Virus record (IMG/VR): IMGVR_UViG_2939127364_000001
Length of the DNA: 64,000 nt
Direction: 5' to 3' (one strand)
Source of the DNA: a virus
Taxonomy: Duplodnaviria > Heunggongvirae > Uroviricota > Caudoviricetes
The notes under the pieces were generated by a model, which was given only the letters and a program-made list of their open reading frames with translations, ran no database searches and was not told where the DNA came from. Below, in pieces: positions 2,434 through 51,756 of the stretch (position 1 is its first letter; each line of letters opens with the position of its first letter). A program made the position numbers and the translations under genes.

Positions 2434-2449
2434 AAACAAATTGTTTTCT
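2434..2449. promoter_or_regulatory. Motif A (AAACAA-N-TTGTTTTCT) upstream of helicase gene
   Basis: aaacaaattgttttct, 20-35 nt upstream of the helicase start. Confidence 0.4.
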
Positions 2450-2457
2450 AGTATTAG

Positions 2458-3207
2458 TTAATTAGATAGGGGATCAATAAACCGCCGTGCTTCTTCCAGT
2501 TCTTCTGGAAAGTGGGCGGAAATAAGGCGCTCTGGAACGATTTCCATTAGCCAGATAGCGGAGAAAATTGCGCGTATGCGCTTGCTGCGAGGGATGGTGC
2601 GCAAACGCTCCAGAATCCACTCAAAATAGCTTTCCTGAATCGGGTTGAACTGCATGTCTCCCATATGCTTAAAGCTAACGAGAGAGTCATCCAGACGGGT
2701 TGTTGCGCGTCTGGCTAATTTCTCTTCGAATATCTCAATCAGCTCTGGCTGCCATAAATGCTGTGGGCGCGGCAGCTTGTCCCACAGCCGTCGTGCAGCT
2801 GCGGAAAGAACGGTGGAGATAAAGTAGTCGTATGAGCAGCAATAGCGATCCGCAAACTGGCGTGCTTTCCATAGCGACGTTTTGTTGGCAGTCGACAACT
2901 CCTGATAAGGCAGACGTTTTAACCCGGTGGTGAACGGAGCTGTTTCAAAGTGTTCGCGACCGTGCGTCAGCATGATATTTGAGTACTGACGTTTGTATGC
3001 CTCCGTAAAAAGACAGGTGGCCATGAGAGGATGCATGTCGCGGTAATCAAACCACTTCGTCTCGAAGAGTTCAGCCTCGTCTTTACAGCGCGACAAACCA
3101 ATGTTTTCAGCGACCCACTTGTCCATAACAGCGGTATTCCACTCTGTCATGAAGTCGTACTGGTCGTTGTCGATGGTATCGAAAAAGATTTGGCTCATGT
3201 GGCTCAC
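2458..3207 (-). CDS. Hypothetical protein (replication-module associated)
   Basis: 249-aa ORF; track start is GTG at 3207, an ATG at 3198 is an alternative. No recognisable motif. Confidence 0.5.
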   Translation of the reverse strand: MSHMSQIFFDTIDNDQYDFMTEWNTAVMDKWVAENIGLSRCKDEAELFETKWFDYRDMHPLMATCLFTEAYKRQYSNIMLTHGREHFETAPFTTGLKRLPYQELSTANKTSLWKARQFADRYCCSYDYFISTVLSAAARRLWDKLPRPQHLWQPELIEIFEEKLARRATTRLDDSLVSFKHMGDMQFNPIQESYFEWILERLRTIPRSKRIRAIFSAIWLMEIVPERLISAHFPEELEEARRFIDPLSN

Positions 3208-3214
3208 CTGGCAG

Positions 3215-3233
3215 GTAGTTACTTACTTATCAC
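3215..3233. promoter_or_regulatory. Motif B (TACTTA/TAAGTA family) upstream of the 2458..3207 gene
   Basis: gtagttacttacttatcac immediately upstream of the start codon. Confidence 0.3.
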
Positions 3234-3308
3234 AATGAGCGGATGATAGCGACTGGTGGCAGTTTTTGGAAGTGGAAACGGAAGGGAGTTGTTCTGGTGG
3301 TGTCTTTT

Positions 3309-3370
3309 AAAAGACCTGCTTCCGTATATATTTAATAAGTTACTTATTATTTATATATACAGAAACAGGC
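3309..3370. repeat. Palindromic AT-rich element, copy 1 (50 bp identical to 35954..36003)
   Basis: cctgcttccgtatatatttaataagttacttattatttatatatacagaa at 3315..3364 is identical to 35954..36003; the AT-rich core is itself near-palindromic. Confidence 0.6.
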
Positions 3371-3480
3371 ATAACTTGTCGTCTTAGACGCCCAGAAGCT
3401 CTACACTTTGAGCCTGTTAAATTGATTAAAAACTTATGTGTAAAATAGAACGCATTAGTCAGTAGCAAAGAGATGCAATA

Positions 3481-4248
3481 ATGGACGATTTATCGGTATA
3501 CGCGAGATCATTGGATAAGGCTAAATACTATGTTTACTGTCTCTATGATACAGAAGACAAGATGAAAAGACCGTTTTACATAGGAAAAGGCAAATCGACT
3601 CGTTGTCTCGATCACATCAAGTATCCCGATGACTCTCCCAAATCCATGCGGATCAAAGAACTTTTGGCTAATAAAAAATTAGGCATAGATATACTTCGTC
3701 ATGGTATGGATGAAACCACAGCCAAACTTGTTGAGGCGACATGCATCGACCTTATGGGGGTCGGAGAGCTTACGAATAAGGTACGAGGAAGTGGTTCCAT
3801 GATGGGCAGAATATCACTGGACGCCTACCATCACTTAGTGCTGCAAGAGGAAACTGAAATTGCTCCTGAGCACGCCGGTCTTGCCTTCCTGCTAAACAGC
3901 ACCTACAAGTCAGGAATGTCCGCTCTGGCATTATATGAAGCTACGCGTGGCGTATGGGCAAAGGTTCCAAGAGACGAGAATCTCAAATATGCCTACGCTA
4001 CATATGGTGGGCTGATAATGGAAGTTTATCAGATTGAATGCTGGGTCAAAGCCGGTTCTCAGCAGTACTTTACAAGGGATATAGCTCTTGGCCCCGACAC
4101 AAAACGTTATGAATTTGTTGGCAGAATAGCCGATGAGCATATTAGAAAACTGTATGTAGGCAAATTAATCAAGAAGCCACCAAGCTACGGTAGCCCTTTT
4201 GTGAAGGTTGGGGTGGTTAGGACTGAACATAGTGTTAGCGCGGCATAA
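3481..4248 (+). CDS. GIY-YIG domain nuclease (free-standing, possible homing endonuclease)
   Basis: 255 aa; N-terminus YVYCLYD-(10)-PFYIGKGKSTRCLDH matches the GIY...YIG...R signature; own transcription unit on the opposite strand to its neighbours. Confidence 0.6.
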   Translation: MDDLSVYARSLDKAKYYVYCLYDTEDKMKRPFYIGKGKSTRCLDHIKYPDDSPKSMRIKELLANKKLGIDILRHGMDETTAKLVEATCIDLMGVGELTNKVRGSGSMMGRISLDAYHHLVLQEETEIAPEHAGLAFLLNSTYKSGMSALALYEATRGVWAKVPRDENLKYAYATYGGLIMEVYQIECWVKAGSQQYFTRDIALGPDTKRYEFVGRIADEHIRKLYVGKLIKKPPSYGSPFVKVGVVRTEHSVSAA

Positions 4249-4264
4249 AGCTGACACTGTAGTT

Positions 4265-4302
4265 ATGCATTGGCGCAATGTACGCGCCAATGCATGATTT
4301 TT
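4265..4302 (+). terminator. Strong hairpin terminator at convergent junction
   Basis: 12-bp perfect stem atgcattggcgc / gcgccaatgcat with a 7-nt loop, followed by gattttt. Confidence 0.6.
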
Positions 4303-4660
4303 AACCTTTCTTCATCAACTCGCGTTTAATTTCATCGGTACGCATCGTGACATCGGCAGCAGTGATCGCCTCGTTCAGCTTCACGATGTCCTCGATTTCC
4401 TGCGGTGTCTTCTCCGCAAGATGGAAAATAGCAGCACGAATCACATCAGAGCGGGTGAATTTCTCAAAGCGAGGGATGAACTTCATCATCTCCAGCAGTT
4501 CGAAGTATTCGTCTTCCAGTGACATTGTGCGGCTTTTGATTTTCTCTTTGCCACGAGTCGGGCGTCCCTGTGGTCTGACTGGTTGGCGCAAAGGAGTTGT
4601 GTTCTTAGCCGGTGCATCAGGCTCTTTGCGCTTTGCTAGGTCTCCCATTCTCATGGACAT
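4301..4660 (-). CDS. Small partition partner protein (ParG/RHH-like centromere-binding candidate)
   Basis: 119 aa, basic N-terminus, immediately downstream of and overlapping parA by 1 nt. Confidence 0.45.
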   Translation of the reverse strand: MSMRMGDLAKRKEPDAPAKNTTPLRQPVRPQGRPTRGKEKIKSRTMSLEDEYFELLEMMKFIPRFEKFTRSDVIRAAIFHLAEKTPQEIEDIVKLNEAITAADVTMRTDEIKRELMKKG

Positions 4661-5325
4661 TATTCTTCCTCCAGACTCAAGATGTAATCTACAAACTCTT
4701 CGAACTCGGCTTCTGCCTTCTTATCGCGTTCAGCGCCAGTCATTTCAAAGATAGAACGACCTGCCTCTTCCGCATCGTCATAAACGTTACGGTTGTACAG
4801 GTTAACCGGCGCAGCCTCGATGCCGAAAGTTTCGACAATTTCCTTCGCGGCCAGAATACGTGATACCTGGGAAGGCAATGACGGACACTGGTTTATTACC
4901 GCGCGGATCTTAACTTTCTCGTTCACATTGCGAACGTTGTCGATAATCGGGTCGATATCACGCAGAGATTTCAAATCACGACGTTTAGGGCGCAGCGGGA
5001 TGATGATTACATCAGCCATAAGCATCGCCAGACGCTGAATTTCGGAGTCAAAGCCACCAGCATCTACCACTACAAACTCAGCTCTACCCTGAAGCGATTT
5101 TAGGTGCTTAATGATGTCATCCTGAACGTATGCAAAAGGAATCAGCTCAAGGTCTTCGTTCTGTCGACGGTCTTCACACCAGCTCGTTGTCGTGCGCTGA
5201 ATATCTATATCGGTAATATAAACCTTCTTCTTCTTTTTGACTTTCAGGCAAACGGCAATTTGCTGGGCAACGGTGGATTTGCCAGGCCCGCCCTTTGTGC
5301 CGCCAACCACAAAGATCTTGGTCAT
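4660..5325 (-). CDS. parA: ParA-family partition ATPase (small type Ib-like)
   Basis: 221 aa; deviant Walker A GGTKGGPGKST at the N-terminus; motif A 36 nt upstream. Confidence 0.75.
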   Translation of the reverse strand: MTKIFVVGGTKGGPGKSTVAQQIAVCLKVKKKKKVYITDIDIQRTTTSWCEDRRQNEDLELIPFAYVQDDIIKHLKSLQGRAEFVVVDAGGFDSEIQRLAMLMADVIIIPLRPKRRDLKSLRDIDPIIDNVRNVNEKVKIRAVINQCPSLPSQVSRILAAKEIVETFGIEAAPVNLYNRNVYDDAEEAGRSIFEMTGAERDKKAEAEFEEFVDYILSLEEE

Positions 5326-5360
5326 TGGAGAGTTCCCTTTGCGTATATAATTATCGTCTG

Positions 5361-5376
5361 AAACAACTTGTTTTCT
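5361..5376. promoter_or_regulatory. Motif A upstream of parA
   Basis: aaacaacttgttttct. Confidence 0.4.
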
Positions 5377-5604
5377 TATATGTGATATAGCCTAAATGCC
5401 TACGGCTGCGGTGTAAAGGTTAAATGGTAGGTTGTGATTAACAATTGGCAATCATAGCTTGTATTTGTCTGTTGAAAAAAGTAACAATGACCTCTATATT
5501 ACAAGTACGGTGATATGCCGTACACAATTTGATAATGCACACGTAATGGGCTATAGCCTTTTAAAGTAATTTTTGAGTCGAAAACTCAGTTTGAACAGAG
5601 GAGA

Positions 5605-5913
5605 TTGATGGCCTTCCTACATCACGGCCATCAGGAGGAATACATGTCAGCACTAAAAAAGCAGCGCATCGATTTGAGATTAACCGATGACGATAAAAGC
5701 ATCATCGAGGAAGCTGCCGCAATGTCTAACCAGAGCATTACTCAGTTTATGGTTAGCAGTGCATCTGAACGTGCCGTGAAAGTTATAGAGCAACACCGTA
5801 GACTAGTTCTGAATGAAGAATCCTGGAATCTGGTTATGGACGCTATAAGCAATCCTCCGGCACCGAACGACAAGCTGAAACGAGCTGCTGATCGTCTGAA
5901 AAGCATGGAGTAG
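5605..5913 (+). CDS. DUF1778-type RHH antitoxin (AtaR/TacA-like)
   Basis: About 90-102 aa, ...KKQRIDLRLTDDDKSIIEEAA..., directly upstream of and 8 nt from a GNAT toxin-like gene; true start may be the internal ATG near 5644. Confidence 0.6.
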   Translation: MMAFLHHGHQEEYMSALKKQRIDLRLTDDDKSIIEEAAAMSNQSITQFMVSSASERAVKVIEQHRRLVLNEESWNLVMDAISNPPAPNDKLKRAADRLKSME

Positions 5914-5920
5914 TTTACTC

Positions 5921-6442
5921 GTGAGCAATACAACGATAGAGATTTTCTCTGGAGAGAAAGATTATGATCTAAACGGTTTTGATTGCGGCGAAGAGTCACT
6001 AAACGCCTTTTTAGCCAACCACTTAAAAAGGCAGCATGAGGGAAAAATTCTTCGTGCTTATGTGCTTTGCACTCAAGAAGAAAGGCCAAAAGTGTTAGGA
6101 TATTACACTTTGTCAGGTAGTTGTTTTGAAAAGGAGTCCTTACCTTCAAGAAGCAAACAAAAGAAGGTTCCTTATCGGAATGTTCCAAGTGTTACTTTGG
6201 GTAGGCTGGCTTTGGACAAGTCCCTTCAAGGTCAAGGATTTGGCTCAATGCTTGTAACACATGCAATGCGCGTTGTGTACAATGCATCTCTTGCTGTAGG
6301 CATTCATGGACTTTTCGTTGAGGCGTTAAATGACAAAGCCAAGGCGTTTTATAAAAGTTTAGACTTTATCCAGCTGGTTGGTAACAACGAGCGTTCTTTG
6401 TTCTATCCTACAAAATCTATCGAAAAATTGTTCGAAGAATAA
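5921..6442 (+). CDS. GNAT-family acetyltransferase toxin (AtaT/TacT-like)
   Basis: 173 aa, GTG start; GNAT core LGRLALDKSLQGQGFGSMLV; classic antitoxin-then-toxin arrangement. Confidence 0.65.
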   Translation: MSNTTIEIFSGEKDYDLNGFDCGEESLNAFLANHLKRQHEGKILRAYVLCTQEERPKVLGYYTLSGSCFEKESLPSRSKQKKVPYRNVPSVTLGRLALDKSLQGQGFGSMLVTHAMRVVYNASLAVGIHGLFVEALNDKAKAFYKSLDFIQLVGNNERSLFYPTKSIEKLFEE

Positions 6443-33952: not shown

Positions 33953-35204
33953 GAGAACCACCAAGAATAACACGGTTTTTGACTGGATACCTACGATGTA
34001 CTGGATAGCCCAATGCGTCTGCACTATGCTCAATGCCACCTGTCTTATCCATATCTCGTGTTCCAGGCTTGTAGATGACTTTTTCCAGTGAATCAATCAA
34101 ATGCTTGCACTTCGGATCGATATACAGCCGGATATCTCCAGATGCGGTCATCAGCATTCGGTTAACAGCATTAACACGATCCGCAATTGGCGGGTGCTTT
34201 TTCGAATAATCGACACGTAAGAATCCCTTCTCTTTGAATATGTCGACGTCAGACTCCCCGCGAGCATGTTGGCGATAAGCACCTGCCGGATCTGGAAATA
34301 CCGTTATCTGTGATTTCCAGCGCCAGAAGCGTCTCTCAAGCTCATCACAAACCTCTGCCGTGTTAGAGGAAAAGAGCACCAATTCATCAATTGCCCATAG
34401 CTCACCATTTGGCTGAGGTTGCAAAATTACTGAAGACATCGGGTCAATGTTGAAGTCCTGCCCTACCCATATAGGCAACCGAGGGTTGAACTGAAGCGGT
34501 TTTACATGCACGTTACGATCGAACGGGTAGTAAACGCGCCCGGACATGTTCTCAAAGCTCGCCAGGTACTCCTGAGCGAACGATTTCGGGTCCATATCGT
34601 TCTTAGCAGCTTCAATTTCCGCCGTAGGTACAAACGGAGAATCGGCAGTTACAAACTGCCAGCTCTTCCACTGTCCCTTTCTTTGCAGCTCTACGTTCTG
34701 GCCTATCGTCCACAGTTTGTGAAATTCCGAGAAGCCTTTTGGCGTACCAATGATCAGTGCACCGCCGCGTGTCGATGAAAGAGTAGGTCGTAACACCTTG
34801 TACCAGGTGTCAGCCTTCATATCCTGAAATTCATCAAGCACTACAAAATGCAACGCTACGCCGCGCAGAGTGTCAGGCTTATCAGCACCTTTGAGGGCGA
34901 TCTCCGAACCGTTCTTCAACACGATTGTCATCGTGGTGTCGTTCTTTTTCCTAACCCACTTACGAGGCAGAACTTCCTGTAGATCGTCCCACAAAATCTG
35001 GCGAGCCATCTGGTAAGTAGGAGCGACATACCAGACCCTTTGCTTTTTTTCCTTTGCCGCCGCACGAATAATAGTGGAGATCGACAACCGGGATTTTCCC
35101 CAGCGTCGACCAGCACAAACAACTTTAAATCGATGCGGAGACTGGAAGACTTTCATCTGTCCAGAATGCAGTTGCACAAGACTGAGCGAGGACGGGATTG
35201 CCAT
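33948..35204 (-). CDS. Terminase large subunit
   Basis: 418 aa; N-terminal Walker A VVCAGRRWGKS; C-terminal acidic nuclease-like region. Confidence 0.85.
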   Translation of the reverse strand: MAIPSSLSLVQLHSGQMKVFQSPHRFKVVCAGRRWGKSRLSISTIIRAAAKEKKQRVWYVAPTYQMARQILWDDLQEVLPRKWVRKKNDTTMTIVLKNGSEIALKGADKPDTLRGVALHFVVLDEFQDMKADTWYKVLRPTLSSTRGGALIIGTPKGFSEFHKLWTIGQNVELQRKGQWKSWQFVTADSPFVPTAEIEAAKNDMDPKSFAQEYLASFENMSGRVYYPFDRNVHVKPLQFNPRLPIWVGQDFNIDPMSSVILQPQPNGELWAIDELVLFSSNTAEVCDELERRFWRWKSQITVFPDPAGAYRQHARGESDVDIFKEKGFLRVDYSKKHPPIADRVNAVNRMLMTASGDIRLYIDPKCKHLIDSLEKVIYKPGTRDMDKTGGIEHSADALGYPVHRRYPVKNRVILGGSR

Positions 35205-35836
35205 TATTCGTCCTCCCCTTCACTTCCATCATCTGTCGCATCAAATTCGCTTAGAGCTTCTTCTTCCAACGTCTCAAGCAATTCGTCATCGATGATTTCA
35301 GGCTCGTCGTCTTCCTGACGTAATTTCGCCACCTGGGAAGGCGTAAGCTCACCAAATACCAGGTTCGGAATTTCTTCCTCGTCATTTTCCGCATGATCCA
35401 TGCCCAATGCTTTGGACGAAACTTCAAAGCATTTTGCAAGGGTATTACTGGCTCTCTGTAAGCTCTTGAGAGAATCCTCAATCGCCCCTAAAGGCTTACC
35501 CTCACGTTTGGCCGTAGTGACTTCGACCATCACCATCTGCCCCAACGCATACGCCCAGCCGTCATAACGTGTACGACGTTCTTCTATCTTTTCCGCACGG
35601 GCTTTAGCGCGAAGCTCTGCGTCAGATTTAAGAGACTCACGAACCATCTTCCCAACAGAGTCCGCGCCTTTCTCTAATCCTCGCTTTTTGAAATGTCTGG
35701 AGAGTGTTTCACGACGAATGCCGTACTCTTCCTCCAGCTTTGAGAGTGTATATTCGCCTGACGTCCATTTGGCTTCAGCTTCGGCCCACTCCGCTGGTGT
35801 CAGGCGAGTTTTTACCTCGTCTTTTTCGACCGTCAT
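35204..35836 (-). CDS. Terminase small subunit (candidate)
   Basis: 210 aa; N-terminal HTH-like YTLSKLEEEYGIRRETLSRHFKKRG, highly acidic C-terminus; overlaps terL by 1 nt. Confidence 0.55.
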   Translation of the reverse strand: MTVEKDEVKTRLTPAEWAEAEAKWTSGEYTLSKLEEEYGIRRETLSRHFKKRGLEKGADSVGKMVRESLKSDAELRAKARAEKIEERRTRYDGWAYALGQMVMVEVTTAKREGKPLGAIEDSLKSLQRASNTLAKCFEVSSKALGMDHAENDEEEIPNLVFGELTPSQVAKLRQEDDEPEIIDDELLETLEEEALSEFDATDDGSEGEDE

Positions 35837-35876
35837 AGATCCCTCTAAAACACACAGAGCGCGTCCATGCGCTCTA

Positions 35877-35917
35877 AAACAACTTGTTTACTGCATCTGC
35901 TAACCAACTTGTTTTCT
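35877..35917. promoter_or_regulatory. Two copies of motif A upstream of terS
   Basis: aaaacaacttgttta and aaccaacttgttttct; adjacent hairpin agagcgc-gtccat-gcgctct. Confidence 0.4.
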
Positions 35918-36032: not shown

Positions 36033-36299
36033 TTACATCACCAGTAACTTCGCTTTGGCTCGACCTAAAGTGGTTAACCCAAGAGTTCGGCGGTGATAGC
36101 GATTGTCACTGCGTTGGCGCGTATGCCCTTTCTCCACCAGCCCCTTTTTTATCAGAGCGCGAATTGAGAACTGGATACTTTGCTTGGTTGTCTTGTACGG
36201 CAAAACTTCAAGCAATTCGTCCAGATCAAGTAAATGACCTCGCTCATAACCGAGATTGAGCGTTTTGATAATGTCCTTTTGTTTATCGGTTAACGTCAT
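36033..36299 (-). CDS. Small winged-helix-like DNA-binding protein (hypothetical)
   Basis: 88 aa, basic C-terminus; 10 nt downstream of the GNAT-like gene. Confidence 0.4.
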   Translation of the reverse strand: MTLTDKQKDIIKTLNLGYERGHLLDLDELLEVLPYKTTKQSIQFSIRALIKKGLVEKGHTRQRSDNRYHRRTLGLTTLGRAKAKLLVM

Positions 36300-37459: not shown

Positions 37460-38090
37460 ATTCCACCTTCACGCGTTCTTTGTAGTGCTTGGTGATCTGC
37501 ATATCCGGGCGCAGCGCGTTCTTCAGGTCTTCGTGAGTCGTCGCCACCATTACCGTCGCACCAACCTTTCGAGCGGCACGCTGGAGGTTAGATGCCACAA
37601 CCTGAGCGGTTACACGGTCGAGAACAGCGCCGAACTCGTCAGCAGCCCACACTTTAGCGCCTGACTCAATCAGTTTGGCAATCTTGAGACGATATTTCTG
37701 ACCGTCTGACATTTCAGAAGGCTTGCGAACAAACAGATATGCATCGTTCAGACCAGCCATAGATAACAACCCAAGCGCATCACTGGTAGTTTTGCCCAGT
37801 TGGTCAATGACGTTAACCTCATTATCGAAGGTAAAATCATCGATGGAGGCTACAGACAGCCCTTCATCCTTCATCTGTCGTTGCAACTCGCGCAGCACAA
37901 CGGATTTGCCGGATCCGGATTGGCCGGTGATGTACACCACATCGCCCTGCTTCACTTCCAGCTCCAGATTGTCGTAAAGCGTCCACTCTTTTTCGTCCAG
38001 ACCAAGCCCGAACGACTCAGCGATTTCCAACGTGCGCGTGGTTTTATTTACGCGTGTCTGAAACGATACGTTGATGATGTATTTGCTCAT
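37452..38090 (-). CDS. Small ABC-type ATPase (nucleotide-binding domain only)
   Basis: 212 aa; Walker A GQSGSGKS, signature-like SDGQKYR, Walker B VWAADEFG, H-loop TTHE. Confidence 0.6.
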   Translation of the reverse strand: MSKYIINVSFQTRVNKTTRTLEIAESFGLGLDEKEWTLYDNLELEVKQGDVVYITGQSGSGKSVVLRELQRQMKDEGLSVASIDDFTFDNEVNVIDQLGKTTSDALGLLSMAGLNDAYLFVRKPSEMSDGQKYRLKIAKLIESGAKVWAADEFGAVLDRVTAQVVASNLQRAARKVGATVMVATTHEDLKNALRPDMQITKHYKERVKVEYA

Positions 38091-38755
38091 GCAGCCATCT
38101 CCCCGGAAGAGATCTTCTCCGCATATGCCACAAATGCGTCTACCCCGCTTTCTCCTGTCATTTCTTCCATGTGGGCAAGCAAATCACCAACAACAATGGC
38201 AGAGCCAGCAGGGAGCGTTTTAAAGCCCAATACGTCGACAACACGTACTTCTTCCGCTGCAACTTCACGACTGATCTCGGTGTGTTCATCCTTCTGTCGT
38301 TTAGTTTCTTCGCCAAGATCGATAACTAGCGAGTCGGTGTCCATTTCTTCTGTCATGCTGCCAACGAGAACATTCAACTCACGCTCTTCAAAGCCGAAAA
38401 CCTCGATATCGTCCAGAACAAGCGACTCAAGCTCTTTTTGTAGCTTAATTGCATCGTAATCAATGCTGGCAAGTCGGTTATCTTCAAGACGCTTCGCACG
38501 AACCTCGTCATCACTGAGATCATCGCGAACAATAACCGGTACGCGCTCAAGTCCAGCAAAAATTGCAGCCTCACGGCGGCCGTGGCCAGTAATAATTACG
38601 TCGTTCTTATCGACCGTAATTGGCTGGTCAAATCCGCGCTTTTTAATGGCTGCGGCCAGATCTCGGATCTGCTGTTCATCATGCTTTTTGGCATTCATCT
38701 CATAGGGAATAAGATCTGCCGGGTCGCGATATACGATTTCAAACTTTTTGGTCAT
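38087..38755 (-). CDS. ParB N-terminal-domain protein 2
   Basis: ParB-type box ...ITGHGRREAA...ERVPVIV; start placed at ATG 38755, which overlaps the upstream stop as TAATG (the track ORF extends to 38788). Confidence 0.6.
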   Translation of the reverse strand: MTKKFEIVYRDPADLIPYEMNAKKHDEQQIRDLAAAIKKRGFDQPITVDKNDVIITGHGRREAAIFAGLERVPVIVRDDLSDDEVRAKRLEDNRLASIDYDAIKLQKELESLVLDDIEVFGFEERELNVLVGSMTEEMDTDSLVIDLGEETKRQKDEHTEISREVAAEEVRVVDVLGFKTLPAGSAIVVGDLLAHMEEMTGESGVDAFVAYAEKISSGEMAA

Positions 38756-39453
38756 TACATACGCTCCTTGTAGTAGTCGACCAGCCATACCAGAGCCTCA
38801 CCAGCGTTCTCCATTTCATTACCGGTGTTAATAGCCTGCTCTTTGATGATGTTTTTTATGGTTTCTGCAACACGATCTGACGCATCGAAAGTTACTTTGA
38901 AGCGCATGGTCTGATGTTCCGCACCCACACGTTCGGTTTTCTCTCGTTTGTCGGTATCGACAGGCTCATCACTACCACGAGACAACGCCTCCAGTGCTTC
39001 AAGGTCGATTGCCGCCTCTTTTGCTAAAACCATCGAGATTTCGTCGTCATACGGGGCGATTTCAGACAGTTGATAGTCAAGTTCTGACTGAATTTCTTCA
39101 ATGAAGCGTTGCAATGCGATTTGGTCGTCTTCACCGTATCGCTCGTTGTCCACCAGTGACATCTGTTTAGCTACGACATCGCTAATTTTGCCCACAGAAA
39201 GCACCGGAACCGTTGAAATTCCTTGCTCAATAGCAGCACGCCAGCGATGTTCGCCGCCGAGGATTTCAAAAAATCCATCTTCAAGTTCACGAGCCAAAAT
39301 TGGCTTAAAAAAGCCCAATTTTTCGATAGAACCTTTCAGTTTTTCAAAATTCTGCGCACCAACCGAATTGGTGTTCCAGGTATTCGGGCGAAGGTTGGCA
39401 ACATCAACCTGCAAAATCGTGATTTTTACATCCATTTTATTGCTACAATCCAC
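38755..39453 (-). CDS. ParB N-terminal-domain protein 1
   Basis: 232 aa; ParB box GGEHRWRAA...VPVLSV; first gene of the coupled operon. Confidence 0.6.
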   Translation of the reverse strand: MDCSNKMDVKITILQVDVANLRPNTWNTNSVGAQNFEKLKGSIEKLGFFKPILARELEDGFFEILGGEHRWRAAIEQGISTVPVLSVGKISDVVAKQMSLVDNERYGEDDQIALQRFIEEIQSELDYQLSEIAPYDDEISMVLAKEAAIDLEALEALSRGSDEPVDTDKREKTERVGAEHQTMRFKVTFDASDRVAETIKNIIKEQAINTGNEMENAGEALVWLVDYYKERM

Positions 39454-41079: not shown

Positions 41080-41358
41080 ATGAGCGAAAAGAAAACAACT
41101 TATTGCCAAGTGGCATTGTCTGATAAGGCCAATGAAAAACTTGGAAAATTTCAAATAAAACTCAAAGAGAAAAAAATCAAGATGTCTAAGGCTGAAGTTA
41201 TCAATGCCATTCTGGAGACGATGACTATGGCTGAATTTGACAAAGTCACATCTGCTGTTGGGGTTTCCGCTAAGACGCGTGAGAAAATCATGCGCATCTA
41301 TGAAAACTCCAATATGACAAAAAAAGATTTAGAGGAAATACTGAGCAGGTTGCCGTAA
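41080..41358 (+). CDS. Small hypothetical protein
   Basis: 92 aa, starts 3 nt after the helicase stop. Confidence 0.45.
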   Translation: MSEKKTTYCQVALSDKANEKLGKFQIKLKEKKIKMSKAEVINAILETMTMAEFDKVTSAVGVSAKTREKIMRIYENSNMTKKDLEEILSRLP

Positions 41359-42130: not shown

Positions 42131-42679
42131 ATGGGTCACTTACCTTTTGATAAGAGATTTTTAAGTGCAAAGGAAATAAAGGACTGTGTGGATTTTTATC
42201 ATAAAAAAAATAAACAGAAATCTTGCTTAGAAAACCCTAGACACCTAACTTCTTCTCAAAAAGAAGAGCACAAACTAATACAATACAGGTTAAAGACTTC
42301 ACGTAAAGATCGTTATGAACACTATATATACGTGAAAGATATTGAAGGCACCAGGACAAATTGCGGAGTAGTCTTTTATCCTTTTGATATAACAAAAATG
42401 TTCGCTATTATGGACTCCTGTGATGGCGTGGCCCCTGGAAAATTGGAGTTGCATTCAAATTTATACACTTATCCCAGTGCTCGGAAATGGATAAGAGATA
42501 GCACGTCACCCTATGGTTTTTCTTTTCTTTTCAAAAATCATCTGGCATTAAAAAATTTTATCGAAAAATACAACAACTGCATATCATCAGGTGAATTAAG
42601 TTTCGACAAAGTCTGTAAAAACATAAAAAGATATGACCTCTTAAAAGATATTTACAACAGAACTCAGAAGAGCATGTAG
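42131..42679 (+). CDS. Hypothetical protein (AT-rich moron gene 2)
   Basis: 182 aa; low GC; no recognisable motif. Confidence 0.5.
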   Translation: MGHLPFDKRFLSAKEIKDCVDFYHKKNKQKSCLENPRHLTSSQKEEHKLIQYRLKTSRKDRYEHYIYVKDIEGTRTNCGVVFYPFDITKMFAIMDSCDGVAPGKLELHSNLYTYPSARKWIRDSTSPYGFSFLFKNHLALKNFIEKYNNCISSGELSFDKVCKNIKRYDLLKDIYNRTQKSM

Positions 42680-42706
42680 CCACTCACTAATCATAGTCAA
42701 TCAAAT

Positions 42707-43126
42707 ATGAAAGCAAAAAACTTAATGATTCTAATGCTAACCACGTCACTAATTGGGTGTTCGTCTTCGTCTATATCTATTTCAAAGGCAAAGGATGCAC
42801 CTCAAAGCAGAATATTTAAATATCAAACACCACATGAGTCTAGTCTAACAATAGTTCGAGACAAAGGGCTGGTTGGTTCTGCATGTAACGCTTCCATTTT
42901 CATCAATGGAGAAACGGCTGCAAAGCTAGAACCTGGTGAAAAAGCAACTTTCTACCTTAACGAAGGAGAGTGGATCGTTGGGACATCAATTGAAAGTTCA
43001 GGTCTTTGCGCATTTAACCCCTCCAGGATGGAACGAGAAATAAAGCTAAAGCAGGGCGACTCGAAAACATATCGGGTTTTCACTACCTGGGATGGTACAA
43101 TGGACATATTGCCAACCACTTTATAA
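42707..43126 (+). CDS. Lipoprotein (superinfection-exclusion candidate)
   Basis: 139 aa; signal peptide with lipobox LTTSLIGCSSS. Confidence 0.6.
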   Translation: MKAKNLMILMLTTSLIGCSSSSISISKAKDAPQSRIFKYQTPHESSLTIVRDKGLVGSACNASIFINGETAAKLEPGEKATFYLNEGEWIVGTSIESSGLCAFNPSRMEREIKLKQGDSKTYRVFTTWDGTMDILPTTL

Positions 43127-43130
43127 TGAT

Positions 43131-43652
43131 ATGACGACGAAAGACATCACCTACGGCATACCGGCTGAAGTCTGGCCGCGAGACTACGAACATGCAGAGC
43201 GCACCTTGCTCTTCTGGCGGAGTGCAAAATTTCCTGTAAGAGTCACTCTCGAAGACGGCCAAGTGTTTTGCATGTATGTCTACGGGCTATTGAGCGCAAG
43301 AAATAAGCTGAACCTCACACCAGATCCGCTTAGCAACACAAATCGTATAAGGCTCCCTCTTGAGCGCATTAGCACAATTGAGTCGGGCATAGAAGAGGTT
43401 GACACTTCATTCACAGGTCGACTAACGCTAAACAATGAACAGATGGTTAATCAGCCATCACGTCGTGACTTTTTTAAGATATGTCGTCAGGCTTACCAAA
43501 ACGGCAAATCTATAAGGGTCTACATGGCAGACGGTCGCGAAATTGAGGGAACGTCAGATGGCGTTGACGCCTGTCTAGTCACACTTAAGTTGGAAGACGG
43601 TAGAAAAATACTTATTTTCTTCGATTGGGTTGAACGAATCCTTCCGTTTTAA
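43131..43652 (+). CDS. Hypothetical protein
   Basis: Track ORF 43092..43652; start set at ATG 43131, just after the lipoprotein stop. Confidence 0.4.
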   Translation: MTTKDITYGIPAEVWPRDYEHAERTLLFWRSAKFPVRVTLEDGQVFCMYVYGLLSARNKLNLTPDPLSNTNRIRLPLERISTIESGIEEVDTSFTGRLTLNNEQMVNQPSRRDFFKICRQAYQNGKSIRVYMADGREIEGTSDGVDACLVTLKLEDGRKILIFFDWVERILPF

Positions 43653-45494: not shown

Positions 45495-45977
45495 TTACAC
45501 GCCATCAAGGATGTGGATGCGGTTGCTTGCGTATACATTCAGCATAAAGTTAGCGCAAAACAGTTTCCATGTATCAACGCCAGCGGTATACGTAATGTTT
45601 TTGCATTTAATTGCATTGTTGGCGATCCGCATCCCCTGCGATACTGCTTCATCGTCGGAAAATTTGAACGACGATTGAGTTTTAATCCAGACAGAAATCT
45701 GCGTAGCGAACTCAATCAGCTTGGACTGGCAGAATCGCCCGGAGCGCACCGGAAAGACGAACGTTCCGAATCCAGAATTTACCACATACGCTTTCTCAAA
45801 TACCCGCGAGTAACGACGATTGCAAATGATGTCGCGTGCAATAATGCATTTTTCTTGTGCTGACAGTTCTACCGTCTCATTGTCGCGCCATGCACCAAGT
45901 ACTCGTTTTTCAATGTCAGAGAACGTTACAGCGATATTGCCATGTGCGGGTGCGTTTACAGTAGCGATAAAATTCAT
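45495..45977 (-). CDS. Hypothetical early protein
   Basis: 160 aa; motif A 20 nt upstream of the ATG. Confidence 0.5.
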   Translation of the reverse strand: MNFIATVNAPAHGNIAVTFSDIEKRVLGAWRDNETVELSAQEKCIIARDIICNRRYSRVFEKAYVVNSGFGTFVFPVRSGRFCQSKLIEFATQISVWIKTQSSFKFSDDEAVSQGMRIANNAIKCKNITYTAGVDTWKLFCANFMLNVYASNRIHILDGV

Positions 45978-45996: not shown

Positions 45997-46013
45997 ATAA
46001 CAAATTGTTTTCT
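45997..46013. promoter_or_regulatory. Motif A upstream of 45495..45977
   Basis: ataacaaattgttttct. Confidence 0.4.
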
Positions 46014-46186
46014 TGTTGGCGTTAATTATCGTTGTACGAATAAGGCGTCAAAGTGGAAAGTTGCGGTAGCCGGACGGGAACAGGTGGGTTTGTCGGTTGC
46101 CTGGAGGTAAGAGGTTGGTGTTTTTAGCCTGCGGGAAACAGGATGGTCATTTAAGGCCACCAGCGTTAACTGGTGGCGTTTATCTC

Positions 46187-47060: not shown

Positions 47061-47477
47061 TTACCACCAGGCGCAGAAGGTCAGTCTGTTATTGTGAAAG
47101 TCGTGGTTCTTAATCAGATCTTCCACAAGCTCTTTCAACTGCCCCACATCATGCCAGTAACCTTCATCGTACTCCTGACTGCCGAAGAAAAAACCTTCCC
47201 GGGTAGGCAAGTACTCTTCGCAATTACTTTCGTTTATGTGCATCAAATGAGCCTTCAGAAAACAAATGTCATTCATCGTTAATTCTAAAAGCTCACAATT
47301 TTCGACTTCACCTACGTTGCGCTCCATCCACCCAACGAGCGCATTGAACTTACGGAAGTAAGCAACCTGCTTTCTGGATGCCTCGTTATTCAGATCGTTT
47401 TTAGGCTGTGTCTCGATATAGATATCAAGTCCCATGATGGTTTCCTTATTAAGTTGCTTCAGTGAAATCATTTTCAC
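47061..47477 (-). CDS. Hypothetical early protein
   Basis: 138 aa, GTG start; motif A 15 nt upstream. Confidence 0.5.
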   Translation of the reverse strand: MKMISLKQLNKETIMGLDIYIETQPKNDLNNEASRKQVAYFRKFNALVGWMERNVGEVENCELLELTMNDICFLKAHLMHINESNCEEYLPTREGFFFGSQEYDEGYWHDVGQLKELVEDLIKNHDFHNNRLTFCAWW

Positions 47478-47491: not shown

Positions 47492-47508
47492 AGAAAACAA
47501 ATTGTTAT
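47492..47508. promoter_or_regulatory. Motif A upstream of 47061..47477
   Basis: agaaaacaaattgttat. Confidence 0.4.
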
Positions 47509-47552
47509 CGGGCATAAGAAAATGGCGCGGTTTACGCGCCATTCAAAGAGGA

Positions 47553-48008: not shown

Positions 48009-48011
48009 ATA

Positions 48012-48386: not shown

Positions 48387-48396
48387 TACAACTCCG

Positions 48397-48413
48397 TAAA
48401 CGACTTGTTTTCT
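48397..48413. promoter_or_regulatory. Motif A upstream of 48075..48386
   Basis: taaacgacttgttttct. Confidence 0.4.
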
Positions 48414-48499
48414 CAATGGCGTAAATAATACCAGTAAGAAAACGGCTACAAAGCATATTGATCAGGTGCATGAGCGATATGCAGGTTCCTCCCTGCGGC

Positions 48500-48529
48500 T
48501 ATAGAGAAATTAAGCCAGCAATGCTGGCT
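48500..48529 (-). terminator. Terminator after 48540..48869 gene
   Basis: agccagc-aat-gctggct followed by a U-rich stretch in - sense. Confidence 0.45.
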
Positions 48530-48539
48530 TTGGTTAGGT

Positions 48540-48869
48540 TTACTCGAATACTTCAAGAAACTCCTGAACGTCCCAGTGCTGGACGAGGTGAAGATAGACC
48601 TTAGAAATAACGTCATTTTCGCTATCGCATGTGAAGTAGTACTTCTGGCTGCGGTTGTATGTGTCCACACAAAATTCGCTCATATCCATAAAGTCAGCAT
48701 CTTCACCCATGTCGCAAATCATCAAAGCAGGTGCGTCATCACGAGTCATCAGCTCAAGCACCCACCGCGAATTGATCAGAGTGGAAGACCAACCTTCCAG
48801 CTCATAGAACTGGTCAAACTCTTTTTGAGTCAATTTCTTGATTTGGTTGATGTCGATATTTGCAAACAT
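48540..48869 (-). CDS. Hypothetical early protein
   Basis: Track start 48890 overlaps motif A; the internal ATG at 48869 is more plausible. Confidence 0.5.
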   Translation of the reverse strand: MFANIDINQIKKLTQKEFDQFYELEGWSSTLINSRWVLELMTRDDAPALMICDMGEDADFMDMSEFCVDTYNRSQKYYFTCDSENDVISKVYLHLVQHWDVQEFLEVFE

Positions 48870-48880
48870 AAAGCAATCCT

Positions 48881-48897
48881 TAAACAACATGTTTTCT
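48881..48897. promoter_or_regulatory. Motif A upstream of 48540..48869
   Basis: taaacaacatgttttct. Confidence 0.4.
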
Positions 48898-49230
48898 TGA
48901 TGGTGTTATTATCGCAATAACGCACAGGCGAAAAAGGATTTTATTCCGGTGAATGTGGTTTTGGCAGTGAGTTTTCAGGTTCAGTACCGAGTACACTTTT
49001 TACATTATTCTGATTTAGTGGCCGAAGGTGGCTGGTGGGCAGAATAATCCTCTCCCCGAAAACCTACTGAAATCGATTGTGACCCGTTGGCTGTCTGGCA
49101 CAATTACGCTGTAACTGGGCATTCAGAGGGAATCCAGCGGTAAGTAAGTTCGCCTGCACGTGAGCGCCTCTCTTCTTCCCGCACATTACAGGTGGGTAGC
49201 CGCAACTCTCCCTATCGCTATACCGGTACG

Positions 49231-49372
49231 CCGCCGTTCCTGAACCGGCATCGAGCCTTTTCCCGAAATCCACACAGGCAACTCGACCGTTTCCCTGAAA
49301 ATCCCCAGCCGTTCCCCGAAGGCAACCCAGCCGTTTCTGTAGCGGGATGCAGCCTTTTCCCTGTATGGACCG
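49231..49372. repeat. Iteron-like cluster 2: six direct repeats at ~22-bp spacing
   Basis: Units starting near 49233, 49254, 49286, 49308, 49329 and 49351 (gccgttcc, agccttttcc, accgtttcc, agccgttcc, agccgtttc, agccttttcc); intervals 21, 32, 22, 21, 22. Confidence 0.55.
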
Positions 49373-49479
49373 AAGGCTAACCGTAGGGGTGTTACGGGGG
49401 ATAAAATCAGGAGTTGAATAAATACGAAAAAGGAGGCGACACCCCTCCTTCCCTCCCCACTTATACATACCTGTCTTGT

Positions 49480-50330
49480 TCGCTATACATGTTGTGTTTT
49501 CTTCGTGTTTTATCTGTCTCAACCTCTCTATAGGCGTTAATGCTCACTCCTTCCAGAATGTTCTATACGGCGACTATTTCTGTTGGTGAATTGGGTGTGT
49601 CGTTCTCTCTGTCGGTGTAAATGGTTTCGTTCGTTTTGCGGTGGTTCTTCTGTGGGGTGTTCTCGTCGTTTTGGTGATTGTTCTTCTCCGTCTATGGAGT
49701 AATGGCAGGTGGGCGATTCCTTTCGTTATTGTGTTTGAGTTGTTTGTCTGGAGTGTGTGAAAGGCTTTTGTAGTTATTCGTGTATTGGGTAATGGCGTTT
49801 CCCGTGATTGTTATGTTTCGTGTCTTTTGGGATTGAGAGAAACCTTGCGGTTACAGGCTTCGTTGGGGTTTCAGTGATTCTGGTGTTTCTTCGCTGTTTG
49901 GGTAATGGCGTGTCGTGGGTATCGCGCGTATGAATGTTTTCGGATTGCCTGTGAAAGTTAGGTTGGTTGTCCGGTAGCCTGGGAAGAAGAGGTGGGTCTT
50001 TTCGGTAGCCTGCCATAAAGAGGTTGGTTGTTTTGGGGAATGACATGTGTGTTATTTAGTTGTTTTGTTATGCCTGAAAATAAGTTGTTTATATGGTTGT
50101 GTAACGCAACGGGAACGATTTTGAGCGTGTGTTTTTGTTGGTAGTGTGTTGGATCGTCTGTGGTGAAAATTGGACGCTGTGGCGCTGTCTGCTGCGTAGA
50201 ATTACGGGTATAAGCAGTGATGTGTGAAAACGTCAATTTTTTAGACCAAATCGGGTGAAAGCGTTGATGTTTCGTTGATCTGTTATTCAGTTGTTTTCTT
50301 ATTGGTATAAACAACTATAACCTATTGATA
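49480..50330. other. GT-rich strand-asymmetric, apparently non-coding tract (~0.85 kb)
   Basis: + strand G+T about 80% by eye; no credible ORF on either strand; internal direct repeats (cggtagcctg... at 49972 and 50002; gtaatggc three times). Confidence 0.5.
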
Positions 50331-50433
50331 TTTAAGGATGTGATTGCAGGTATAGAATGGGGGTAGTGGCGATCAACGGATTCTTATAGAAAAGAATCAA
50401 ATTGTGACCGCCATTATCAATGAGTTGCAACCG

Positions 50434-51003
50434 TTAGTTGTTCAGATAAACATTTGGAACACGGACGTAGAAGTTCCTGTCGCCGGTAAGTTCCAGAGTA
50501 ATGTTAATGTCATTACCATTGTCTAGTGTAGCCGTTGCTCTATAGAACTTATCCGTCACCTTGTCCTCTATTGTCACCTTCATACATTTTGGTGCAGTCG
50601 AACCGTTATTCTCTTTCAGAATGGTCGTTACGAGAGGACAAGCCGCTTCTTCAAGAGCAACCTCTTTCTGGTGTGGGATACCGATGAAGATGTTACCAGC
50701 AAGCAACGCGACGATTACGATAAAAGGAAGTCGACTGCCTTTTGTAACGGTGGCACGTTTCCAGAGATAGACCGGAAGGAGAAATACTCCCCACAGGATG
50801 GCCGGTGGTTCATACCCTGCATCAGACAATGCCATTCTGTCAGCCACCAGAAAGCCGAGTCCAGCGACTCCACCTATCACTATTGCATAATTCAAATACT
50901 CATCTGGCGGCGCTCCAAAGAAGAGAGGCAGTAAAGCTAGAAGCCACGCATAAGCATTATTCAGAGGTTTTGTTTGTTGGTTCTGGGTTTCCATCACATC
51001 CAT
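50434..51003 (-). CDS. Integral membrane protein (hypothetical)
   Basis: 189 aa; 3-4 hydrophobic segments in the N-terminal half and a soluble C-terminal domain. Confidence 0.5.
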   Translation of the reverse strand: MDVMETQNQQTKPLNNAYAWLLALLPLFFGAPPDEYLNYAIVIGGVAGLGFLVADRMALSDAGYEPPAILWGVFLLPVYLWKRATVTKGSRLPFIVIVALLAGNIFIGIPHQKEVALEEAACPLVTTILKENNGSTAPKCMKVTIEDKVTDKFYRATATLDNGNDINITLELTGDRNFYVRVPNVYLNN

Positions 51004-51155
51004 TCCATCACATAAAAATCGCGTTTATATATTATCAATTTTCTCACTTGTATAACCTAAATACGCATCCGTTTATCAATCCACCTTCCACAAACATCAG
51101 CTTTAGCTATGAAAAATAACAATCTCAAAGTGAAAACCATTATCATAGGAAACGA

Positions 51156-51341
51156 TTAGATGAGATGGTCTAATTCATCATCTATCATTGCTTTAACACT
51201 TGAATCATTAACCCCGTATTGATTTATGAACCGTTTCAGCTCCGGTGAAAACTGAAGGTAGATATCGTGAGCGTTTTTCACTGTAGGTTCAACGCCACGC
51301 ATTTCAAGCGCCTTTAGTAGATATGAGTCTTCTTTAAGCAT
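51156..51341 (-). CDS. Small hypothetical protein
   Basis: 61-aa ORF in the same operon. Confidence 0.35.
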   Translation of the reverse strand: MLKEDSYLLKALEMRGVEPTVKNAHDIYLQFSPELKRFINQYGVNDSSVKAMIDDELDHLI

Positions 51342-51377
51342 AAATTCTCCGTTGTCTAGTATGAAGCGATTGCCGGA

Positions 51378-51677
51378 TTACCATTGCCAGCACTCTAGCC
51401 CTTCAACGACCGGTGCACCACAATCAAAATGTACAGAGTCAAAGCCTACATCAAGTACTTTCTGAATGTTAGCAATCGCGCCTTCGGATATACCATATCG
51501 ACGCAAGTCCTCTTTCCAGACATCATCCTGTAACCCGGCGTGGACAATACAACCGCCATCAATTTGTGAAACCCAATCCAGCTCATTGCTTGCGATCATG
51601 AATCGGCGAGCATCTTCCTCTGATGTATGAGATGAACTGATCAATGCCACCTGGTAGGCTTGGGTAATGTTCAACAT
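51378..51677 (-). CDS. Hypothetical protein (first gene of right-end operon)
   Basis: 99 aa; two copies of motif A upstream. Confidence 0.5.
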   Translation of the reverse strand: MLNITQAYQVALISSSHTSEEDARRFMIASNELDWVSQIDGGCIVHAGLQDDVWKEDLRRYGISEGAIANIQKVLDVGFDSVHFDCGAPVVEGLECWQW

Positions 51678-51690
51678 TTCAACAACTCCG

Positions 51691-51756
51691 AAACAATTTG
51701 TTTTCTTATGTGGCTTATTATCTCAATCAACAAAAGGTAGAAAACAAATTGTTTTA
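51691..51756. promoter_or_regulatory. Two copies of motif A at the right prophage end
   Basis: aaacaatttgttttct (51691..51706) and agaaaacaaattgtttta (51739..51756). Confidence 0.4.

Follow-up and report, generated by a model that had tools for sequence, protein, structure and literature searches.

Conserved dyads at the promoters of an SSU5-like phage-plasmid and the regulator that may read them

What reads a 13-base palindrome that recurs just in front of the genes of a temperate element? The question is raised by the 64,000-nucleotide stretch of the IMG/VR virus record IMGVR_UViG_2939127364_000001 (Caudoviricetes; the window hereafter means this stretch at its full length), in which an earlier note, made from the letters alone, had listed ten copies of a dyad-symmetric motif and had proposed either an operator for a dimeric regulator or a phage-specific promoter element. 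The motif is a 6-1-6 palindrome, AAACAA-N-TTGTTT, which in its gene-strand form reads AGAAAACAA-N-TTGTTT. In a megablast comparison with phage records, the window matches Escherichia phage Cyrano (pLF82 of E. coli LF82) at ~97% identity; further matches are other relatives from E. coli and, at ~80% identity, relatives from Klebsiella and Salmonella (SSU5). The window is collinear with Cyrano from base 1 to base 64000, bar a few swapped cassettes. By this comparison, the window is 64 kb of an SSU5-like phage-plasmid and no chromosomal prophage. The rightmost copy of the motif had been taken for the end of a prophage, which is refuted because the phage-plasmid fills the whole window and the alignment with Cyrano runs on both sides of position 51756, ruling out a boundary there; to its right, the genes of the element go on with methionyl-tRNA synthetase (MetRS), an Mrp/ApbC-like ATPase, HumD, and others.

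To the SSU5 type belong pHCM2 of S. Typhi, pLF82/Cyrano of adherent-invasive E. coli, and numerous elements of Klebsiella and Enterobacter. Such elements are widely distributed among clinical Enterobacteriaceae, and resistance genes can be carried by phage-plasmids as a class (PMC9600943). The searchable literature holds nothing on how SSU5-like elements choose between plasmid maintenance and lytic growth, and the full texts on SSU5, pHCM2, and phage-plasmid regulation, subscription journals lying outside the search, describe neither the motif nor an SSU5-type operator. The evidence set out below indicates that the motif is a promoter-associated dyad and very likely the operator of a regulator, and we put the probability that it is the DNA operator of an element-encoded repressor, with a regulon of ~20 promoters, at about 0.5. 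The dyad has a fixed place on ~11 promoters of the window and on ~20 of every SSU5-like phage-plasmid of E. coli, Salmonella, and Klebsiella. One highly conserved operator on ~20 promoters ties together partition, replication, nucleotide metabolism, packaging, and a row of accessory and anti-defence genes. Through the motif, a regulon is delimited, the true starts of genes and the transcription units can be predicted, and the search for the regulator shrinks to a few small proteins, so that the maintenance/lysis circuit of a clinically common phage-plasmid family becomes directly testable.

A palindrome in fixed register with promoters

Scanned against shuffled sequences, the exact form AAACAANTTGTTTTCT has 4 matches in the window, where 0.00 are expected, and 16 matches are found with up to two mismatches, where 0.50 are expected and the largest shuffle gave 3; the core AACAANTTGTT has 14 strand-hits (0.25 expected) and the 9-mer AGAAAACAA has 12 (0.6 expected). 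After merging the two strands of the palindrome, ten real sites and a degenerate site at 50075 are left, so that all ten listed copies are present, with coordinates right within 1 nt, and the degenerate site adds one. A further match at 41090 is a coding-region one, found in the E. coli lineage only and lying inside the gene of a 92-aa protein. The question of whether the motif avoids coding DNA is answered by Cyrano, 86.8% of which is coding: 14 of its 16 sites with at most one mismatch are wholly intergenic, and the other two fall in the first codons of coding sequences whose annotated starts overrun the motif, with a start bearing a Shine-Dalgarno (SD) sequence just downstream. The suggestion that several open reading frames (ORFs) run into the motif and have shorter true starts is thereby borne out, for example, by ORF 48540–48890 (minus strand), whose SD-bearing start is at 48869. 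CYRAN_105 and CYRAN_110 of Cyrano likewise overrun the motif, the SD-bearing starts in these three cases lying 12–20 nt downstream, and the public annotations of both genes are probably too long. Other parts of the first description did not hold. The orientation is not always the same, three copies (47492, 51739, and 50075) standing inverted with respect to the minus-strand gene that follows; start codons, placed 5–40 nt away in the note, lie 11–65 nt from the end of the site; and the copy at 51739 does not precede a gene of its own, being instead the upstream partner of the copy at 51691 in one promoter.

For comparison, the complete genomes of Cyrano, SSU5, and Klebsiella phage pJN2-26 were assembled from annotated records. 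Each contains 18–21 sites, amounting to 41 gene-oriented and 14 inverted sites after exclusion of four obvious coding-region chance matches. The consensus of the gene-oriented class consists of a weak −35 region followed by ...GCCTTtt...(TGn)GATAAT-TAACaCCAACa-AGAAAACAA-N-TTGTTT-A..SD..ATG. A T stands 11 nt upstream of the motif in all 41 gene-oriented sites of the three genomes; it is the last base of a hexamer of the GATAAT/TATTAT type or one base past it, and the TGn extension is frequent. The motif thus starts 10–11 nt after the −10-like hexamer, or 7–8 nt after it at parA (TATATC/TATAAG), where the promoter of one relative has a TTGACC −35 hexamer at 16 nt spacing and the dyad runs from ~+1. 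With a transcription start 6–8 nt after the hexamer, the dyad would lie at ~+4 to +20, and we therefore place it roughly from +1/+4 to +20 of promoters that appear to be of the sigma-70 type. In the inverted class, the order is a terminator hairpin, AAACAANTTGTTTTCT, GCCTTTT, ~10 nt, and TGnGAAAAT, which brings the dyad over the −35 region. A three-base AGA extension faces the promoter core in both classes, and the central base is free (A 9, C 8, G 14, T 10). Paired sites occur at two promoters, in tandem at 25 bp at the small-terminase gene (terS), and at 48 bp, one on each side, at the gene of a DUF5983 protein.

The sites are kept at orthologous promoters, namely those of terS, parA, dnaB, a cobT-like gene, nrdB, a TciA-like gene, and a row of small genes, and their retention spans E. 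coli, Salmonella, and Klebsiella elements (~80% nucleotide identity) despite diverged flanks. The exact motif is also found in IMG/VR contigs only ~69% identical to these genomes, and relatives with par proteins of 46–65% identity have it at their parA and dnaB promoters. When 45 distinct sequences upstream of parA were aligned, including those of relatives with a second par gene product 46–67% identical, TAAGAAAACA..TTG.TTT was the sole fully invariant block, surpassing even the first codons of parA.

Most genes behind the motif are silent in the plasmid state. Per-gene RNA sequencing of the Cyrano lysogen is given in the LF82 paper, with a median background of 9.8 (PMC9928086, S1 Table), and 12 of the 15 first genes behind a motif are at background level (5.7–12.9): terS (7.1), CYRAN_47 (7.8), CYRAN_58 (5.7), CYRAN_70 (12.9), CYRAN_85 (7.0), CYRAN_87 (7.1), CYRAN_93 (6.3), CYRAN_101 (7.5), CYRAN_105 (12.8), CYRAN_106 (12.2), CYRAN_108 (5.7), and CYRAN_110 (6.7). 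The helicase gene is at 21, CYRAN_111 at 25.5, and the parA operon at 50–89 (PMC9928086). The silent promoters nonetheless carry near-consensus extended −10 boxes, and the silence of such promoters fits repression; the par operon, whose expression the plasmid state requires, is the one clearly expressed unit, as autoregulation would predict.

A repressor on duplex DNA or a signal of another kind

We propose that the element encodes a dimer that recognizes the 6-1-6 dyad sequence-specifically and, once bound, prevents RNA polymerase from binding or escaping. Such a repressor would keep parA (partly), the dnaB helicase gene, terS and the late genes, and the small, individually promoted accessory genes off in the plasmid state, and, beyond the window, genes of nucleotide metabolism and others would be silenced likewise. 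In the second class of promoters, it would act from an inverted dyad that covers the −35 region and often stands directly behind the terminator that ends the preceding gene. The operator half of the earlier proposal is supported, the dyad being promoter-linked, at a fixed distance from the −10 box, intergenic, and the most conserved block of the promoter; the dimeric regulator itself stays a proposal. The other half, a promoter element for a novel phage polymerase or sigma factor, is unlikely: no such polymerase is annotated in the three genomes, where no search aimed at one was made, and the SD sequence comes 1–3 nt after the motif at several sites. The layout TAATTAAC...A/G is superficially similar to a promoter of a T7/T3-like polymerase, but this reading is rejected, as no single-subunit polymerase is annotated in Cyrano, SSU5, or pJN2-26, where no search aimed at one was made, and the hexamers fit extended −10 promoters of the sigma-70 type. 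Nor is the motif the −35 element of a promoter farther downstream, because an SD sequence within 1–3 nt leaves no room for a −10 box and a start site.

Recognition by a dimer on duplex DNA is suggested by the reverse-complement symmetry about a free centre, by the lack of covariation between the arms, by the register fixed to the −10 box and not to the SD sequence or start codon, and by the conserved inverted copies, which lie upstream of the −10 box. No compensatory changes between the arms occur in the sites compared; variants such as AACAT-N-TTGTT, TTGGTT, TCGTTT, and TTATTT alter one arm without compensation, and non-compensatory variants in either arm are the expectation from independent half-site contacts on duplex DNA. 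An RNA hairpin or riboswitch is ruled out by the same lack of covariation, by the lack of a stable fold (−0.4 kcal/mol for the motif RNA, no better than shuffles), and by the result that no Rfam family reaches its gathering score in the window.

Single-stranded RNA could be read in another manner, and the rival that survives best, although we consider it distinctly the less probable one, assigns the motif to a homologue of FljA. The gene, at 43131–43652 on the plus strand, matches Pfam Flag1_repress over the full profile (1.8e-68) and PHROG 1444, and its product would recognize AGAAAACAA-N-UUGUUU beside the SD sequence in mRNA leaders, repressing the translation of ~15–20 early or lytic mRNAs and destabilising them. 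The model is Salmonella FljA acting on fliC mRNA, a post-transcriptional action that is cited in PMC8306008 (ref. 125) and PMC9368917 (ref. 33). An FljA-family gene is present in every SSU5-like phage record, those from Klebsiella included. Klebsiella is non-flagellate, which argues for a target of the homologue inside the element. The AlphaFold2 (AF2) model of the protein (pLDDT 81) has two tandem helix-plus-five-strand domains, and all of its top Foldseek matches in the PDB are Hfq, so that two tandem Hfq/Sm-like domains, an RNA-binding fold, are predicted; we found no paper linking FljA to the Sm fold in the literature searched. The gene is on in the lysogen (log2 7–8 in several conditions; PMC9928086), and a gene-oriented motif would, by inference, sit in the leader, often with the SD sequence 0–3 nt after it. 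The Salmonella/Citrobacter fliC leader contains CAAGUUGU, with the shared core CAAGTTGT, just before its SD sequence, and matches 8 of 12 dyad positions, but this likeness is short and has a nominal chance of ~1%. Other observations speak against the leader as the target. Exact reverse-complement symmetry with a free centre is meaningless for the recognition of single-stranded RNA, and the motif RNA is unfolded; the register is tied to the −10 box; and 14 of the 55 sites, which are inverted, stand before the −10 box, in some cases following a strong terminator, and so outside the regulated transcript, yet their conservation is equal. In the lysogen, the target mRNAs are at background and not present but untranslated, and the FljA-like proteins diverge to 56–74% identity, whereas the motif is invariant. 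It is hence doubtful that the palindrome is the recognition element of the FljA homologue, in leader RNA or possibly in DNA, with a post-transcriptional regulon of ~20 genes under a private Hfq-like protein and with Salmonella FljA as a domesticated offshoot whose fliC leader keeps the CAAGUUGU core; if true, the element would bear a phage-borne Hfq-like regulator that is the likely origin of FljA.

The repressor model must also be set against the view that the motif has no dedicated binder at all and belongs to a mobile, duplicated terminator–promoter module, kept either through recent descent or for polymerase function, as the start-site and initially transcribed region or as a surrogate of the −35 element. 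An extended flank, GCCTTtt...GATAAT-TAACaCCAACa, is indeed common to many sites and suggests that they are paralogous cassettes; the AGA extension is turned to the core in every case; and an inverted copy gives a TTGTTT/TTTTCT run at the usual place of the −35 hexamer. However, the same dyad is shared by promoters with unrelated flanks (parA, dnaB, nrdB, terS, and the cobT-like gene), it is more conserved across genera than the −10 and −35 elements, and, good −10 boxes notwithstanding, the lysogen keeps the genes silent. We know of no requirement of polymerase for a 6-1-6 palindrome at +4 to +20, and a binder-free cassette seems improbable.

Candidate binders

If the dyad is the operator of a repressor, the candidate that we favour, holding roughly half of the probability given to that model, is the 119-aa product of the second gene of the parA operon (4301–4660, minus strand). 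It lies directly downstream of the ParA gene (4660–5325; Pfam MipZ, AAA_31, and CbiA) in one operon, and the pair is present in all relatives. Candidates were screened with Pfam, PHROGs, and NCBIfam, and the 119-aa protein, which has a disordered basic N-terminus with an AT-hook-like GRP and a putative ribbon-helix-helix (RHH) region, gave NCBIfam aCcr1 at E 2.3e-4, below the cutoff; we take aCcr1 to be an RHH family. Its homologues, down to 46% identity, share the invariant blocks MGDLAK, a basic arm PQGRPTRGK, and KSRTMS-EDE with FTRSDVIRAAI, the last two of which fall where the strand and the start of helix B of an RHH fold would lie, and the invariance of these blocks parallels that of the motif. 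The promoter of its own operon carries the motif, and its homologue CYRAN_29 is expressed in the Cyrano lysogen (89 versus a background of 9.8; PMC9928086). A 33%-identical homologue has a different strand sequence, and its parA operon is flanked by different repeats, AGCTTGC. That remote homologue is encoded on a metagenome contig (L232:1790–2052, 3001–3200) with AGCTTGC/GCTTAYG repeats on both sides, a locus with the typical type Ib layout of operator plus centromere and a different specificity; the most distant homologues reached, on short contigs, are 33–42% identical. As the binder, the 119-aa protein would be a partition protein of the omega/ParG/KorB kind, autoregulating its own operon through the same site and coupling plasmid maintenance to silencing of the lytic programme; if this is true, one protein runs both partition and lysogenic silencing.

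The role proposed for such a regulator is worth comparing with those of known multi-operator systems. In the temperate phages P1, itself a phage-plasmid, and mycobacteriophage L5, the site of one regulator (C1 and gp71, respectively, the latter acting at 'stoperators') is scattered genome-wide in short intergenic spaces, oriented to transcription, and silences many units in the lysogen, as is proposed here; however, the P1 and L5 operators, of 17 bp and 13 bp, lack symmetry and have unrelated sequences, whereas the present site forms a 6-1-6 palindrome that would cover +1 to +20 or the −35 region. In RK2/RP4 KorB (12 OB sites, TTTAGCSGCTAAA), pSM19035 omega, and TP228 ParG, a partition protein is a global repressor; KorB reads a 13-bp 6-1-6 palindrome and omega reads converging short repeats at several promoters including that of the own par operon, as here, and the pSM19035 sites double as centromeres. 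In contrast to these systems, neither the site nor the protein shows sequence similarity, the 119-aa protein being no ParB-type helix-turn-helix protein and having no detectable ParG/omega homology, parA has a single dyad and no arrays, and the putative targets include phage late and replication genes. N15 with SopB is likewise a phage-plasmid with palindromic par sites among phage genes that influence neighbouring promoters, but it has four sites and a type Ia SopAB system, whereas ~20 sites in a fixed promoter register and a small type Ib-like ParA are found here. Salmonella FljA with the fliC leader is comparable in that a protein of the family is encoded here, the motif lies between promoter and SD sequence like the FljA target, and CAAGTTGT is shared; the differences are the match at only 8 of 12 dyad positions, the inverted untranscribed copies, the DNA-type symmetry, and ~20 targets versus one. 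Finally, lac O1 is a dyad centred at ~+11 just downstream of a sigma-70 start, with auxiliary operators, which some promoters have here also, but its family and sequence are unrelated, and the auxiliary sites in the phage-plasmid stand out of helical phase, at 25 or 48 bp. Compared by eye, none of the consensus sequences of C1 (ATTGCTCTAATAAATTT), OB (TTTAGCSGCTAAA), and OA (GTTTAGCTAAAC) is matched by the motif AAACAANTTGTTT. In function, the system resembles those of P1 C1, L5, KorB, omega, and N15; neither its sequence nor, to the extent that this could be tested, its protein family is that of any of them. A repressor regulon with many operators, in a temperate element, is of a known kind, and the site of this one is undescribed in the literature searched.

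Several results weigh against a repressor on the dyad, and against the 119-aa protein in that role. The promoters themselves are a reading of the sequence, since those bearing the motif were not called in a scan for the strict sigma-70 consensus, whose rules on spacing and on the −35 element leave out promoters of the extended −10 type; likewise, the −10-like hexamers behind the placement at +1 to +20 were picked out by eye. The AGA extension, asymmetric and always facing the core, is not accounted for by a simple symmetric dimer, and the spacings of the paired sites (25 bp and 48 bp) are out of helical phase. The silence in the lysogen is supportive and not decisive, because most phage genes are silent in a lysogen anyway, and activator-dependent promoters would also be silent there. 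The AF2 monomer of the 119-aa protein has a pLDDT of only 65, with helices after the disordered N-terminus; neither a sequence nor a fold match to it was found in the PDB, and hhalign gave no match to ParG and omega sequences entered by hand. A lone dyad is not the usual target of type Ib centromere-binding proteins, which as a rule bind short repeats in arrays. Nor can profiling of presence and absence tell the candidates apart, since each SSU5-like genome or contig found has all of them together with the motif.

The same par operon invites the reading that the sites are mainly dispersed parS-like loading sites for ParA and the 119-aa protein, with secondary effects on promoters. A copy lies at the parA promoter, 5300–6000 holds this one dyad and no repeat array, essentially no non-coding DNA follows the 119-aa gene, and that gene itself follows one for a small Walker-type ParA; moreover, the four scattered centromeres of N15 and the case of pSM19035 are precedents. 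On the other hand, all copies keep to a promoter with constant register and orientation class, a constraint that partition alone would not need, none is found apart from a promoter, and the binding of the par proteins to the sites would have to be assumed, so that we give the dispersed centromere little credence. Weakest of all, and in our view very improbable, is a host DNA-bending factor such as integration host factor (IHF; consensus WATCAANNNNTTR), to which the match of AAACAANTTGTTT at 7 of 9 specified positions, the resemblance to the lambda H' core ATCAATTTGTTG, the A-tract on one side, and the invariance of the motif across hosts while the candidate phage proteins diverge would point, but all sites deviate at the same two IHF positions (A for T at 3, T for R at 13) and also keep TTG in the N4 gap, where IHF reads no bases, and a strict palindrome is no feature of IHF. 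To our knowledge, no E. coli transcription-factor consensus matches the motif.

The other proteins of the element that were considered as binders are weaker candidates than the 119-aa protein. An 88-aa putative winged-helix protein (36033–36299, minus strand), encoded by the last gene before the terS promoter, has a weak NCBIfam match to Sta1/Lrs14 (E ~0.003) and a conserved recognition-helix region, and remains a minor candidate; its counterpart CYRAN_123 is at background in the lysogen (7.8). The 92-aa protein after the UvsW-like helicase (41080–41358, plus strand), RHH-like by eye, is 12-fold above background in the lysogen, but its putative DNA-reading strand differs among Cyrano, SSU5, and pJN2-26, whereas the motif is invariant, which makes it an unlikely binder; it may be a lineage-specific regulator or antitoxin. 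CI-like CYRAN_45, outside the window, is also unlikely, because SSU5 keeps the motif without having the gene; its own control region has other palindromes (GGTAAGTGCTTACC) and no motif. The divergent region between CYRAN_45 and CYRAN_46 (Cyrano 42600–42800) contains the palindromes TGGTAAGTGCTTACCGA and GGTAAG...CTTACC and a 21-bp tandem repeat, presumably operators of the classical immunity repressor and distinct from the motif. The S24 peptidase gene at 55167–55556 (minus strand) encodes no LexA-like regulator but HumD, a UmuD homologue (NCBIfam 8e-66), and the pair of ParB_N-domain genes at 38087–39453 was set aside, being silent in the lysogen.

Sites in the window and neighbouring genes

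The leftmost site of the window is an exact copy on the minus strand at 2434–2449 (AGAAAACAATTTGTTT on the gene strand), 19 nt before the ATG of the DnaB-like helicase gene (1074–2414; Pfam DnaB_C), with orthologues at Cyrano 32077, SSU5 34382, and pJN2-26 75764. The exact copy of the parA promoter (5361–5376, minus strand) starts 7–8 nt after TATATC and ends 35 nt before the ParA ATG. Beyond the 119-aa gene of this operon, a GIY-YIG (LEM-3-like) nuclease gene on the opposite strand (3481–4248, plus), within 3380–4302, replaces the third par-operon gene of Cyrano, CYRAN_30, a swap that looks like a cassette exchange of the homing-endonuclease type. The tandem pair of the terS/late promoter consists of an upstream copy, AGAAAACAAGTTGGTT (35902–35917, minus strand), located 10 nt after CTAATT/TAATTA, and a proximal copy, AGTAAACAAGTTGTTT (35877–35892, minus strand), located 25 bp from its partner and 40 nt before the terS ATG (gene 35204–35836); the pair is kept in Cyrano (54/79) and SSU5 (53/78). 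Between these operators and the SD sequence, the terS leader (35837–35880, minus strand) forms a stable hairpin (−15.2 kcal/mol, z −2.7) with a U-rich run after it, a terminator-like element that is kept in SSU5 and pJN2-26 and hints at antitermination control of the late operon.

The remaining sites precede small genes on the minus strand. The copy AGAAAACAATTTGTTA at 45998–46013 (minus strand) lies 20 nt before the ATG of a 160-aa gene (45495–45977) and is preceded by TTGACG-N15-GATAAT-N11, the −10-like GATAAT being at 46025–46030 (minus strand), 11 nt before the motif. The inverted copy at 47492–47507 (plus strand) covers the −35 region of a TGn-GAAAAT extended −10 promoter of the gene 47061–47435, and lies 8 nt after an intrinsic terminator (47508–47548, minus strand; −15.6 kcal/mol, z −3.95); an identical arrangement is found at Cyrano 97190 and pJN2-26 28539. 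Situated between a strong terminator and the next promoter, this copy lies in DNA that is probably not transcribed. The copy AGAAAACAAGTCGTTT at 48398–48413 (minus strand) is preceded by TGgTATTAT-N11 and lies 11 nt before the ATG at 48386, and the copy AGAAAACATGTTGTTT at 48882–48897 (minus strand) is preceded by TGcGATAAT-N10 and lies 12 nt before the ATG at 48869, where an inner ATG makes the spurious longer ORF.

The degenerate inverted copy TGAAAATAAGTTGTTT (50075–50090, plus strand) is kept at Cyrano 94605, SSU5 90740, and pJN2-26 25869. It lies, with a half-site at 50291, in an ORF-poor stretch of ~1.3 kb (~49000–50400, minus strand) that is A+C-rich on the gene strand; CYRAN_103, annotated in the corresponding stretch of Cyrano, resembles a non-coding translation, and the stretch has no Rfam match. 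At the DUF5983 gene (51378–51677), an exact copy at 51691–51706 (minus strand), preceded by TGaGATAAT-N10, lies 13 nt before the ATG, and an inverted exact copy at 51739–51754 (plus strand) covers the −35 region of the same promoter; the centre-to-centre spacing of 48 bp is identical in the window, Cyrano, SSU5, and pJN2-26.

To the right of the last site, the MetRS gene (51839–53872, minus strand) is divergent from that of an Mrp/ApbC-type (NUBPL) P-loop ATPase (54030–55130, plus strand), annotated as 'MinD' in Cyrano, a pair that mirrors the chromosomal metG–mrp arrangement of E. coli and suggests a captured host locus. Several Cyrano genes are annotated as P1-like, namely those for Cra, TciA/B, a tail-fibre S homologue, and HumD. 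In the segment 55597–62462, which differs from Cyrano, a complete type I restriction-modification system (56259–62375, plus strand; HsdM 520 aa, HsdS 439 aa, HsdR 1038 aa) takes the place of a Cyrano segment, and this variant of the phage-plasmid thus has a restriction-modification cassette of its own.

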